Below, piece after piece: positions 989 through 4,063 of a stretch of 4,063 nt of DNA. The position numbers and the translations under genes were made by a program. The DNA is from a plasmid. Under the pieces are notes generated by a model that saw only the letters and a program-made list of their open reading frames with translations, ran no database searches and was not told the origin of the DNA. Where the stretch lies: NCBI RefSeq assembly GCF_057098645.1, contig NZ_JBXSPU010000006.1; one strand, written 5' to 3'. How positions within the stretch are numbered: the stretch's first letter is position 1; each line of letters begins with the position of its first letter.

Positions 989-1243
989 ATGAGCAGAACG
1001 CTCGAACAGAAGATTGCTGATGCTGAGGCGAGATTACAGCGCCTGAAGGCGAAGAGCCGGAGCCTGGACACAGCGCAGAAGGTTGTTGTGGGTGCTGCAT
1101 TGCTGGCAAAGGTCAGAAAGCCGGAGGAGGTGCAGTTGCGTGCCTGGTTACTCCAGTTCCTGAAGGCAGAGGTGACACGACAGGCTGATGTGACGCGCAT
1201 ACTGCCGCTGATTAACGAGCTGGAGGCGCTGCCAGAACAGTGA
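989..1243 (+). CDS. mobC: MobC-like mobilization accessory protein (relaxosome component), 84 aa
   Basis: ATG at 989 with a GGAG Shine-Dalgarno at 978-981 (7-nt spacer) and TGA at 1241-1243. The product contains ...AQKVVVGAALLAKV..., resembling the RSF1010 MobC motif ...RKVLVGAMILAKV... as recalled. Size and position (divergent from mobA across oriT) fit mobC. Confidence 0.65.
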   Translation: MSRTLEQKIADAEARLQRLKAKSRSLDTAQKVVVGAALLAKVRKPEEVQLRAWLLQFLKAEVTRQADVTRILPLINELEALPEQ

Positions 1244-1252
1244 TTGTATCGT

Positions 1253-1311
1253 CCGCTCGCCGCAGCCCCAGCGACCGAGCGTTAGCGAGCGAGTGGGCGA
1301 GGAAGCGGAAG
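1253..1311. other. Segment resembling the ColE1/pMB1 region downstream of ori (putative single-strand initiation / primosome assembly site)
   Basis: CCGCTCGCCGCAGCCCCAGCGACCGAGCGTTAGCGAGCGAGTGGGCGAGGAAGCGGAAG aligns at roughly 80% identity to the pBR322/pUC backbone sequence CCGCTCGCCGCAGCCGAACGACCGAGCGCAGCGAGTCAGTGAGCGAGGAAGCGGAAG, recalled from memory. That sequence lies in the region I remember as containing a PriA-dependent pas/rri site. It contains the inverted repeat GCTCGC...GCGAGC. Confidence 0.4.
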
Positions 1312-1483
1312 TGAATCAGTCGCCAGGTTGAGCACATACGCACGGTTTTTCGGCAGGTGATATGCGCTGAACCCGCATGAATACTGGGTTTCCACAGGGT
1401 TGGAGGGGGTGTATTCGAAACTTGCAATTCTGCTTTATTGCAACGCATTGTTTTTATTGGTTTTTTGTTTTCAGCACCCCAAG

Positions 1484-1492
1484 TTATCCACA
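1484..1492 (+). promoter_or_regulatory. DnaA box, perfect match to consensus TTATCCACA
   Basis: TTATCCACA at 1484-1492, immediately upstream of the AT-rich region and iterons, the typical place for a DnaA box in Rep_3 origins such as pSC101. Confidence 0.6.
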
Positions 1493-1499
1493 GGCTCGC

Positions 1500-1590
1500 C
1501 GTTAAGTTTTTAAGATCTTATTTTTAGATCTTTTTTTTTAAAACCTTTTTAGGTCTTGTAACACCATGATTTTAAAGATGTTCTGGCAAG
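1500..1590. other. AT-rich region of oriV (candidate DNA unwinding element) with two AGATCT (GATC) sites
   Basis: Strongly AT-rich, with T-runs (e.g. 1531-1539). AGATCT occurs at 1513-1518 and 1526-1531. It lies between the DnaA box and the iterons. Confidence 0.5.
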
Positions 1591-1594
1591 ATAA

Positions 1595-1678
1595 GTGGAG
1601 CTTTTGGGGGTGAAAGGTGGAGCTTTTGGGGGTGAAAGGTGGAGCTTTTGGGGGTGAAAGGTGGAGCTTTTGGGGGTG
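1595..1678 (+). repeat. Iterons: three perfect tandem 22-bp direct repeats (GTGGAGCTTTTGGGGGTGAAAG) plus a fourth 18-bp partial copy; RepA binding sites of oriV
   Basis: Perfect copies at 1595-1616, 1617-1638 and 1639-1660; partial copy at 1661-1678. The repeats are contiguous with no spacers and lie about 100 bp upstream of repA. A 22-bp unit is roughly two helical turns. Confidence 0.9.
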
Positions 1679-1687
1679 TAATCCACA
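1679..1687 (+). promoter_or_regulatory. DnaA-box-like sequence TAATCCACA (8/9 to consensus) abutting the last iteron
   Basis: TAATCCACA at 1679-1687 has one mismatch to TTATCCACA. The iteron array would then be flanked by DnaA boxes. Confidence 0.35.
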
Positions 1688-1698
1688 GAAAAAGGGGG

Positions 1699-1728
1699 TT
1701 GCAAAAAAAAAACTTCCACCCATATGAT
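1699..1728 (+). promoter_or_regulatory. Candidate sigma70 promoter of repA
   Basis: TTGCAA at 1699-1704, an 18-bp spacer, then TATGAT at 1723-1728, about 50 bp upstream of the repA ATG. Confidence 0.4.
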
Positions 1729-1755
1729 AAGTGGCGTACAGTAAAAAAACGCCAC
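1725..1755. promoter_or_regulatory. Candidate RepA operator: inverted repeat GTGGCGT / ACGCCAC overlapping the repA promoter, with an iteron-like half-site GATAAGTGG
   Basis: GTGGCGT (1731-1737) and ACGCCAC (1749-1755) are inverted repeats separated by 11 nt. GATAAGTGG (1726-1734) matches the left end of the first iteron (GATAAGTGGAGC at 1590-1601). Rep_3 initiators commonly autorepress through such sites. Confidence 0.4.
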
Positions 1756-1776
1756 CAATAGCAACGAGCAAGCGAA

Positions 1777-2478
1777 ATGTCAGATCTGATAGCTTACAAA
1801 TCAAACGCCCTTATCGAGGCAAGCTACAAGCTCACTTTGCAGGAACAGCGCTTCCTGCTGGTCTGTATCAGCCGCCTAAAATCCGGAGAAGATTCCCCTT
1901 CGCCGGATGAACAAAAAACCATGACCATCACGGCTGCAGAGTTTCATGATGCCTTTCCTGACATGGGACGGCAGCACGCTGAAGCTAGGCTCAAGGAAGC
2001 GATAGATCGCCTCTGGGACAGGTCAGTAATCATCAAGAACGAGGAAAAACGAGAAGAGTTCCGCTGGGTGCAGTACCGGGCGCAGTATTTCAAAGGTGAG
2101 GCGAAAGTAGATATCACCTTCTCCGATGCCATCATGCCGTATCTGACACAGCTCAAGGGGCAGTTTACGCGGGTAGTCGTGAAGAACGTCTCCAGCCTTT
2201 CCAGCACCTACAGCATCCGCATTTACGAGCTGCTCCAGCAGTTCCGCAGCACCGGTGACAGAACGATAGCTATCGATGATTTCCGAACCATGCTTGCCGT
2301 TGAAGATAAATATCAACAATTCAAAGACTTGAATAAGATGATAATCAAGCCAGCCATCGCCGAACTGAACGAAAAAAGCGATCTGGTTGTAGCTGTTGAG
2401 ACGATCAAAAAGGGGCGCACGGTTGTAGCCCTGCATTTTCGCTTCAAGGAAGACAAACAGATCAAGATGACGATCTAA
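1777..2478 (+). CDS. repA: Rep_3-family plasmid replication initiator (iteron-binding RepA), 233 aa
   Basis: ATG at 1777 and TAA at 2476-2478. The product has MSDLIAYKSNALIEASYKLTLQEQRFLL... and ...ITFSDAIMPYLTQLKGQFT...YSIRIYELL..., matching the pattern of pSC101-type RepA as recalled (MSELVVFKANELAISRYDLTEHETKLIL..., ...LTFSEEILPYLFQLKK...YSMRIYEWLL...). It sits directly downstream of the iterons. Confidence 0.9.
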   Translation: MSDLIAYKSNALIEASYKLTLQEQRFLLVCISRLKSGEDSPSPDEQKTMTITAAEFHDAFPDMGRQHAEARLKEAIDRLWDRSVIIKNEEKREEFRWVQYRAQYFKGEAKVDITFSDAIMPYLTQLKGQFTRVVVKNVSSLSSTYSIRIYELLQQFRSTGDRTIAIDDFRTMLAVEDKYQQFKDLNKMIIKPAIAELNEKSDLVVAVETIKKGRTVVALHFRFKEDKQIKMTI

Positions 2479-2499
2479 AATCGATTTTAAGGCACCTAA

Positions 2500-2523
2500 A
2501 ACGCTCCCTGCTGCGTTTTTTTT
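2500..2523 (+). terminator. Possible weak intrinsic terminator of repA
   Basis: Short stem AACGC (2500-2504) / GCGTT (2513-2517) with an 8-nt loop, followed by a run of 8 T (2516-2523), about 25 nt after the repA stop. The stem is short, so this is low confidence. Confidence 0.3.
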
Positions 2524-2585
2524 GTGTTAGTAGTGCGAAGGTACTATTGAAGTGAAAAATTGCGTCAAAAACGCTCTGATGCAGC

Positions 2586-2612
2586 GAAAAAAGACCCCCC
2601 AATTTTTGGGGG
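2586..2612 (-). terminator. Intrinsic terminator on the minus strand (for the long minus-strand ORF / mobA)
   Basis: On the minus strand: CCCCCAA-AAA-TTGGGGG hairpin (plus 2596-2612), then G, UC and a U7 tract (plus A-run 2586-2592). It lies about 115 nt downstream of the ORF stop at 2726. Confidence 0.5.
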
Positions 2613-2725
2613 CGGAAAAACAAAACTATGCTTGCGTTATGTGAGTGTGCTTCTTGCATTCATCCCTGTCGATGAACATCGACGAACATAACACGATGTT
2701 AAACAAAACAAAATATTGTTCACAT

Positions 2726-4063
2726 TCACTGTGACCAACCGCGATCATGTCTCCTCTCGGTGGTGTGTGTTCGTGCATCTTCCTCGCGCTGCCATTCCTC
2801 CCAGGTACGATTAAAACCCAGCGAGCGGAACAGATGATCCGGCTGTTTTTCTGGTGTGTTGACGGCAGCAAAAAGCGGTGCCTCACGGGTTTTCAGATGA
2901 AACTGCATCAGTTCTGGTGCAGGTGATATGTGGCTGTCTGCATCGTGATTTACGGCAACACCATACCCTGCATACCGTAACCCCTTATCGGTCAGCGCAC
3001 TGATGACCAGATGCCTGTTATCGGCTGAGGGAACGGCAAACGCGGGATACAGCGTACCATTAAGCCGGATAACACCGCCCAGAGAGTCATCCACGCCCAT
3101 GACCAGCAAAAGCTGAAGCTGGCGGGTTTCCCGGTCGACAGAACTCATGACCGGCATCAGCGTCGGTGGCAGACGTCCCTGCATAAAATCCACCTTCCTT
3201 GCCGCTGGTGATGGCATGGCTGGCTGGCGGTCTTCTCCAAGACAGAAAGACTCCGGCCATGTCTTCGGCTGGCGGAGATTGCGGGTATGTTGCGGCCATG
3301 TCTGGCAAACCTGCGTCAGCAGTTGCTCAAAGGTTGCAGAGGAATAAACACGTTGCAGTGGCGGACGTTGGCCGATTTCGCTTCGGTCACAGATATAACC
3401 ACTCCTGTCACGCATTAAATCAACACTCTCAAAGATTCTGGTGCGGTATTTCTCCAGCTCGTTCCCCCAGAGCGTATATTCTCCGTTCCGGTTGTGAAGC
3501 AGAAGGTAACAGGTCATTTCCCCGTTACCAGGCATGGGAGCCTCGCCATACCCCGTAACGACTGCTCTCAGCACCCCTGAATCCATAACGGCATTGTCAT
3601 TTTTCCTGAGCTGCTCCGCGCGACTACGTTCAGTATCTTCCTGTTCCTTCCGGCGCAATTCCTCTTCACGTTTAAGCAACTGGGCTCTGAGAGCTGCAAG
3701 GCCGGATTCCCCCCACTGCTGCCACTGTTTTTCAAATGCCATCTGACTCGCGGGAATGTCCTGTTTCTCCACCTTCCGGTAATGCTGTCGTAATTTTTCC
3801 ATTTGCTGGCTCAGAGACTGGATTTTTCCCTGCTCACTACGGTATTCCGGTGCCGCCCATTGCATCAGGGGAATACGGGAAAAACCGGACGAAAACGGCG
3901 ATGATTTTTTCAGGCTGGCAGCATGGCTCATCGCTTCCTTTCGTTCGGTGTTCAGCTCTTCCCAGCGTCTGCGCGTCGCCTGCATATCTGCCATCATCGA
4001 CATGGCATTACTGGTGAGTTTCCATGCCGAGTTACTGTCCTTCGGCAACGCTTCGATAATGTC
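2726..4063 (-). CDS. mobA: Long ORF with complete 3' end and frame open to the right window edge; most likely the C-terminal ~445 codons of mobA continuing across the junction of a circular molecule, otherwise a 5'-truncated gene of unknown function
   Basis: Minus-strand frame has no stop from 4063 down to TGA at 2726-2728. E. coli-like codon usage (CTG-rich). The supplied track starts at a TTG at 4048, but five further sense codons (DIIEA) precede it up to the edge, and no in-window ATG has a convincing Shine-Dalgarno. The last codon at the right edge (4061-4063) and the mobA codon at the left edge (1-3) are both complete, so on a 4063-bp circle the two ORFs join in frame (...SYTLR|DIIEALPKDSNSAWKL...) into about 715 aa. 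The N-terminal ~150 residues of this part are charged and helical (e.g. LLKREEELRRKEQEDTERSRAEQLRKN); the remainder is globular with no Walker A or other motif I can recognise. Confidence 0.6.
   Translation of the reverse strand, partial: DIIEALPKDSNSAWKLTSNAMSMMADMQATRRRWEELNTERKEAMSHAASLKKSSPFSSGFSRIPLMQWAAPEYRSEQGKIQSLSQQMEKLRQHYRKVEKQDIPASQMAFEKQWQQWGESGLAALRAQLLKREEELRRKEQEDTERSRAEQLRKNDNAVMDSGVLRAVVTGYGEAPMPGNGEMTCYLLLHNRNGEYTLWGNELEKYRTRIFESVDLMRDRSGYICDRSEIGQRPPLQRVYSSATFEQLLTQVCQTWPQHTRNLRQPKTWPESFCLGEDRQPAMPSPAARKVDFMQGRLPPTLMPVMSSVDRETRQLQLLLVMGVDDSLGGVIRLNGTLYPAFAVPSADNRHLVISALTDKGLRYAGYGVAVNHDADSHISPAPELMQFHLKTREAPLFAAVNTPEKQPDHLFRSLGFNRTWEEWQREEDARTHTTERRHDRGWSQ

Follow-up and report, generated by a model that had tools for sequence, protein, structure and literature searches.

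Organization of the Plasmid and Its Replication Origin

The window, that is, the whole stretch of DNA analyzed here, is a complete circular plasmid of 4,063 bp that is 100% identical to many Escherichia coli records, such as pEC224_6. It is an iteron plasmid with a Rep_3 initiator and belongs to the pIGWZ12 type (MOBQ41/Col8282). PLSDB contains 643 matching records, 386 of which cover at least 80% of the window; the identical records are typed there as mobilizable, MOBQ and rep_cluster_1778, and one relative carries the name pMTY2330_Col8282. The genes are arranged as follows.

810 to 1, continuing across the record junction to 2726, minus strand: relaxase gene, the N-terminal 270 amino acids of which form a MobA_MobL domain
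989–1243: mobC
1777–2478, plus strand: rep, encoding a Rep_3 initiator with WH1 and WH2 domains (Rep3_N and Rep3_C; PF01051, 9e-41, and PF21205, 1e-21)

Membership in the iteron-type (Rep_3) origins of the pIGWZ12 family is indicated by a rep gene that adjoins tandem iterons, by DnaA boxes and an A+T-rich unwinding region upstream of rep, and by a MOBQ4-type mobA–mobC module in a plasmid of about 4 kb. The published description of the family agrees in placing an A+T-rich region and DnaA boxes upstream of rep (PMC6856555). pIGWZ12 itself, at about 4.07 kb, shares with the window the order mobA(Q)–mobC–oriV–rep, a Rep_3 initiator, iterons, an A+T-rich region, and several DnaA boxes upstream of rep (PMC6856555), whereas the window is a 4,063-bp variant with its own iteron type. 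Between mobC and rep lies an intergenic region of 533 bp (1244–1776), which contains the elements listed below.

1253–1318, extending more weakly to about 1343: ColE1-type segment
1388–1396, plus strand: upstream DnaA box, GTTTCCACA, in the same orientation as the main box and 96 bp apart from it in the window
1422–1443: reported inverted repeat, with arms TTGCAAT and ATTGCAA
1441–1453, minus strand: IHF-like motif, AAACAATGCGTTG, a consensus match with one mismatch; putative IHF or bending site
1451–1471: T runs on the plus strand, equivalent to A tracts on the minus strand, where they lie 5' of the IHF-like core
1484–1492, plus strand: main DnaA box, TTATCCACA, a perfect consensus match
1514–1539, plus strand: AT-rich unwinding region with two tandem oriC-like 13-mers, GATCTTATTTTTA and GATCTTTTTTTTT
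1559–1571, minus strand: second IHF-like motif, AATCATGGTGTTA, between the unwinding region and the iterons
1590–1677, plus strand: four 22-bp iterons, GAAAGGTGGAGCTTTTGGGGGT, identified with a repeat finder
1679–1687, plus strand: third DnaA-box-like site, TAATCCACA, abutting the last iteron and oriented as the other two boxes
1699–1728: promoter-like site for rep, TTGCAA-18-TATGAT

Within the unwinding region, GATCTTTTTTTTT (1527–1539) matches the 13-mer consensus GATCTNTTNTTTT perfectly, and the whole plasmid contains seven 13-mer matches with up to two mismatches, compared to 1.6 expected. GATC (Dam) sites are present in the tandem 13-mers. In the upstream DnaA box, CACAGGG is invariant in an alignment of 51 sequences described below, and in the relatives with the most divergent left arms the box takes the form TTATTCACA or TTTTTCACA, both perfect consensus matches. 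The spacing between the upstream and main boxes is 93–97 bp across relatives, or about nine helical turns.

Toward rep, an inverted iteron half, AAAACTTCCACC (1660–1671 and 1709–1720), overlaps the only promoter-like site upstream of the gene, which is the usual layout for Rep autorepression. A comparison of the iteron regions of six loci (L003, L004, L007, L011, L013, and L014) revealed that iteron sequence and spacing (21/23/21 or 22/22 bp) vary among clades that have the left arm of the origin, the DnaA box, and the 13-mers in common. Such clade-variable iterons fit a role as the incompatibility determinant in a modular origin.

At the opposite end of the region, the segment 1253–1318 is approximately 85–88% identical to a stretch found in more than 5,000 PLSDB plasmids, mostly of the ColE1 type. 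Its counterpart in pSFD10 is located at 861–917, just past the ColE1-type ori, with RNAI of that plasmid at 211–317 on the minus strand. The PriA-dependent primosome assembly site lies at that position in ColE1-type plasmids.

One circular record of 1,667 bp, pKSE-C11_5 (L017, CP125000.1), corresponds to window positions 1149–2808 at 99.3–100% identity and consists of the origin and rep only. Whether this record is a mini-replicon that occurs in nature or arose during assembly, it bounds the self-sufficient replicon. It still contains the inverted repeat and is therefore uninformative on whether the repeat is dispensable.

The Inverted Repeat and Its Conservation

An earlier note on this DNA had drawn attention to the repeat, and its description is accurate. 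By direct reading and by repeat finder, TTGCAAT (1422–1428) and ATTGCAA (1437–1443) are 100% complementary and enclose an 8-nt spacer, TCTGCTTT. A DnaA box had been placed about 40 bp downstream, and the distance from the right arm to the box at 1484–1492 is 41 bp; the T-rich stretch said to follow the repeat comprises T5 at 1451–1455, T6 at 1461–1466, and T4 at 1468–1471. Since TTGCAA is self-complementary, the repeat can be read equally well as two copies of this hexamer 16 bp apart, each extended by one flanking base.

The frequency of such elements was assessed by counting perfect 7-bp inverted repeats with spacers of 3–12 nt in the plasmid and in dinucleotide shuffles. The whole plasmid contains seven, compared to 2.8 ± 2.0 in shuffled sequences, and the intergenic region 1244–1776 contains three, compared to 0.56, with 32.5% of the shuffles having at least one. 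By this measure, the inverted repeat does not stand out from chance.

Comparison with related plasmids had been proposed in the earlier note as a check, with absence of conservation counting against a function. Relatives were collected from PLSDB and from one metagenome scan with a pattern that spanned the main DnaA box and the first part of the unwinding region (81 loci), and 51 distinct left-arm sequences of the pIGWZ12 type were aligned, with a mean column identity of 84%. The outcome is that the repeat is not conserved. The 22-nt segment occurs in 27 distinct versions, and all seven base pairs can form in only one of these, that of the window itself. Six of seven pairs are retained in seven versions, mostly as TTGCAA-n10-TTGCAA, while 19 of the 27 retain five or fewer, most of them without a predicted hairpin. 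The two central G–C pairs are unpaired in 13 and 14 of the 51 sequences and the closing pair in 32. Compensating changes in the stem were absent across the 51 sequences, and the few cells in which both sides have changed have broken neighboring pairs. Even in L054 and L094, which are near-identical to the window, the right arm reads ATTTCAA.

The two arms also differ in how they are conserved. The left arm of the repeat (1422–1428) is weakly conserved, with column entropies of 0.40–1.18 bits, G1424 in 37 and C1425 in 43 of the 51 sequences. A1437, at the start of the right arm, is confined to the clade of the window (7/51). A conservation boundary runs through the repeat, in that the left arm and spacer are variable and the set of invariant positions begins at 1438. 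A1442 and A1443 are invariant because they represent the TT of the overlapping IHF-like motif. The inverted repeat is a lineage-specific coincidence, formed by two TTGCAA copies that happen to be flanked by T and A.

A separate, longer-range complementarity was observed between 1401–1412 and 1474–1490 (GGGGTG/CACCCC and TGGA/TCCA). It flanks the T-rich region on either side and overlaps part of the DnaA box, and both of its sides are conserved. As a stem it was rejected, as no covariation was detected (score of 0.110, compared to 0.109 in shuffles).

An IHF-Like Motif at the Edge of the Repeat

Read on the minus strand, 1441–1453 is AAACAATGCGTTG, which agrees with the IHF consensus string used for matching, WATCARNNNNTTR, at 12 of 13 positions and has A in place of T at position 3. 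Single-mismatch matches to this consensus are frequent by chance, with 10 in the whole plasmid where 5.6 would be expected, and this counts against the motif as an IHF site. Among relatives, a match with at most one mismatch is present in all 59 distinct pIGWZ12-type origins, a set in which sequences were distinguished over a longer stretch (−120 to +200), and it is located at −45 to −47 from the main DnaA box in each case.

The 59 origins carry 12 different 13-mers, for example AAACAACAGGTTA, AAACAGTAAGTTA, and AAACAATAACTTA, which differ from one another only at consensus positions 6–10 and 13, the positions given as R or N, whereas the seven specified positions never vary. The coincidence of six variable columns with exactly the six degenerate positions has a probability of 1 in 1,716 at face value, for a test that was devised post hoc and next to a T run that is itself invariant. 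In the left-arm alignment, the invariant columns are T1438, A1442, A1443, TGTTT at 1449–1453, T1455, 1463–1465, and 1468–1470. Part of this invariance reflects inheritance, considering how shallow the family is, and conservation of the invariant TGTTTTT may have a different cause.

An A/T-rich tract 5' of the core, as in H'-type sites, is also found here, with AAAACAAAAAACCAATAA preceding the core on the minus strand. When the IHF site H' of lambda attP, read from the lambda record, is set against the motif, both core and 5' A tract align (TATCAATTTGTTGCAAC against AAACAATGCGTTGCAAT), with an A6 tract 13–14 nt upstream. The motif differs from H' in having A rather than T at position 3 and in a shift of the A tract by 1 nt, and the setting of H' is a recombination site rather than a replication origin. 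The mismatch argues against an IHF site, as it falls on a T that is normally well kept. Relatives have AATCAA, AAACAA, or ATTCAA in exchange for one another at the homologous site downstream, which makes A at position 3 look tolerated.

Based on these sequence comparisons, the motif at 1441–1453 may be a genuine IHF or bending site, a reading that we rate just short of probable. The earlier note had offered a host-factor binding site as one of two possible functions of the inverted repeat. In that form the proposal does not hold, with the left arm of the repeat lying in a poorly conserved zone; it survives only in altered form, in that the right arm makes up one edge of an IHF-like motif that is conserved.

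Alternative Explanations

One alternative is the absence of any specific site, in which case the region is a T-rich spacer of a recently diverged family and the resemblance to an IHF site is coincidental. Single-mismatch matches are common, the family is shallow, with a mean column identity of 84%, and relatives that are devoid of the left arm evidently replicate. Against this, the motif persists in the most divergent left arms (L011–L013, L014/L015/L102, and L095), where the sequence just upstream is essentially unalignable, substitutions avoid every specified position of the consensus, and the distance between the DnaA boxes is held at 93–97 bp. We consider this explanation unlikely, but one to be reckoned with.

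Alternatively, the T tract might act on its own, with curvature or ease of melting in place of IHF, for example by bending the DNA statically or by assisting unwinding. The T runs at 1451–1455, 1461–1466, and 1468–1471 are conserved, and a weak 13-mer-like match is present at 1459–1471. A crude AA/TT helical-phasing score for 1440–1487, however, falls at about the 80th percentile of the plasmid and well below the iterons, an unremarkable value that lends no support to phased T tracts as a source of intrinsic curvature. A T tract would also leave unexplained why A1442 and A1443 are invariant while flanked by variable positions. This possibility appears improbable.

A third proposal is that the two TTGCAA half-sites, in inverted or direct orientation, form an operator for a dimeric protein in the clade of the window only. 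Consistent with it, TTGCAA-n10-TTGCAA is found in eight of the 27 versions of the segment, covering the largest clades, and a third TTGCAA serves as the −35 hexamer of the predicted rep promoter. The left half-site, however, varies freely (TTTCAA, CTTCAA, CTCCAA, TTGTAA, or TTGCGA) in a left arm that is otherwise about 90% identical, the sequence resembles neither the iterons nor the inverted repeat derived from them at the rep promoter, and neither TTGCAA copy has a −10 partner. Such an operator is therefore very doubtful.

Other readings were considered and rejected. As promoter elements, the hexamers have no acceptable −10 hexamer at 16–18 bp on either strand by our own reading, and the only promoter-like site returned by the scan is the rep promoter at 1699–1728. 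A Rep operator was set aside because the repeat is unlike the iterons; the iteron-derived inverted repeat is located at 1660–1671/1709–1720. Consensus sites for sigma-54, Fis, CRP, and similar factors were compared by eye, and none fitted.

The other function suggested in the earlier note, a weak Rho-independent terminator that would stop mobC read-through before oriV, is contradicted by energy, geometry, prediction, and conservation alike and has hardly any likelihood left. An isolated 28-nt hairpin can form at −6.1 kcal/mol, a value reached by only two of 200 shuffled 28-mers, and like Rho-independent terminators it has T-rich sequence downstream; no other plus-strand terminator is predicted between mobC and rep. 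Unlike in such terminators, the stem is weak and A/U-rich, with seven base pairs, only two of them G–C, below an 8-nt loop, and the U tract is not adjacent to it. A terminator would be expected to have a stable G+C-rich stem–loop followed within 0–2 nt by a U tract, whereas here the 7-nt sequence CGCATTG (1444–1450) intervenes before the T5 run at 1451–1455. In contexts of 61 and 101 nt the fold is no better than that of shuffled sequence (z-scores of +0.57 and +0.70). The terminator scan, which required at least three G–C pairs, returned nothing on the plus strand between 800 and 1900, and a search of the whole window against Rfam yielded no hits at E ≤ 1. Finally, in most relatives the stem is broken without the compensatory changes that would preserve it, even though the mobC–oriV arrangement is kept. 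Taken as a whole, the inverted repeat is very probably neither a functional hairpin nor a terminator.

The Left Arm of the Origin and the Second IHF-Like Motif

The IHF-like motif at 1441–1453 is situated about halfway between two identically oriented DnaA boxes, within a left arm that is about 80–93% identical across clades with different iterons and with Rep proteins only 76–80% identical. That clades with different iterons and Rep proteins have this arm in common suggests that it is read by host factors rather than by Rep. Four metagenome contigs (L022, L048, L074, and L081; Rep 76–87% identical) are devoid of the entire left arm and retain the main DnaA box, the 13-mers, and the downstream IHF-like site. 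The left arm is hence an accessory and replaceable element, and neither part of the core origin nor essential to this replicon type.

In the same four contigs, the place of the left arm is taken by an unrelated GC-rich segment (1185–1496 in L022) with several short hairpins. One of them, GCCGC-N3-GCGGC, is located about 50 bp upstream of the DnaA box, and another, CCTGCC-GCAA-GGCAGG, precedes AGCTAC. In L014, L095, and L016, a similar GC hairpin with GCTAC after it occurs further upstream.

A counterpart of the second IHF-like site is present at +71 to +76 or at +85 in all relatives examined, also where the left arm is missing. In many relatives it is a perfect consensus match (AATCAATATGTTA or AATCAATGGATTA), and in others it begins with AAACAA or ATTCAA. 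It is on the minus strand in the window, and the site at +85 in other clades is on the plus strand. The two IHF-like sites have opposite orientations in most relatives (−46 on the minus strand, +85 on the plus strand) and are both on the minus strand in the clade of the window. The position of the second site, 1559–1571, presumably corresponds to that of the IHF site in pSC101.

Tentatively, two IHF-type sites may bracket the main DnaA box and the 13-mers, with the left arm as an exchangeable cassette for host factors, by which the efficiency of initiation or the host range is adjusted. In such an arrangement, which we consider rather unlikely, the universal site would be the one between the unwinding region and the iterons, and the other would reside in the optional left arm between phased DnaA boxes. 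Less likely still is a clade-specific operator or single-stranded DNA hairpin signal formed by the TTGCAA pair.

Discussion

The most likely model treats the inverted repeat as incidental and assigns a role to the motif that overlaps its right arm. IHF would bind at 1441–1453 and introduce a sharp bend, which could allow DnaA at the upstream box and DnaA at the main box, adjacent to the 13-mer unwinding region, to cooperate. This would help Rep- and DnaA-dependent opening of the origin, as IHF does at oriC, pSC101, R6K, and P1. From the anatomy of the origin, the loss of the repeat among relatives, and the conservation pattern of the motif, we infer binding, bending, and an effect on initiation, and we judge the chances of the complete model to be evenly balanced.

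Several known origins provide precedents. IHF enhances DnaA binding at the R6K origin, an IHF site is required for replication of pSC101, and IHF is needed at P1 when a distal DnaA-box array must act (PMC4980987). The pSC101 origin has the same order of elements as the window, namely DnaA box, AT-rich region, IHF-type motif, iterons, and rep gene, and in both the DnaA boxes would need a bend to communicate. The window differs from pSC101 in a further putative IHF site that precedes the main DnaA box and lies between two such boxes, and in having a ColE1-type segment upstream in place of a par locus. In the left half of E. coli oriC (DUE, R1 DnaA box, IHF site, and more DnaA sites), IHF bending near a strong DnaA box aids DnaA loading and unwinding (PMC4980987). 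At P1 oriR, a DnaA-box array with an IHF site serves as a back-up module that is dispensable when another suffices (PMC4980987), which parallels the relatives without the left arm. Compared to oriC and P1 oriR, the window would represent a Rep-dependent iteron origin in which a DnaA box, an IHF-like motif, a second DnaA box, and the unwinding region follow one another. The IHF-like motif adds one more example of a well-known type of origin element, in an origin that had already been described in outline.

For annotation, the inverted repeat at 1422–1443 should be recorded neither as a terminator nor as an operator. The value of the analysis is modest and consists of an origin map for a very common family of small plasmids, which is also used as a cloning-vector backbone. 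The map comprises an accessory left arm (DnaA box, IHF-like site, and DnaA box) that is common to incompatibility (iteron) types, and a universal IHF-like site beside the iterons. If the ColE1-type segment is indeed a priming signal next to an iteron oriV, the plasmid would be a modular hybrid. Dependence on IHF, if true, would help to explain the copy number and narrow host range of pIGWZ12-type plasmids.
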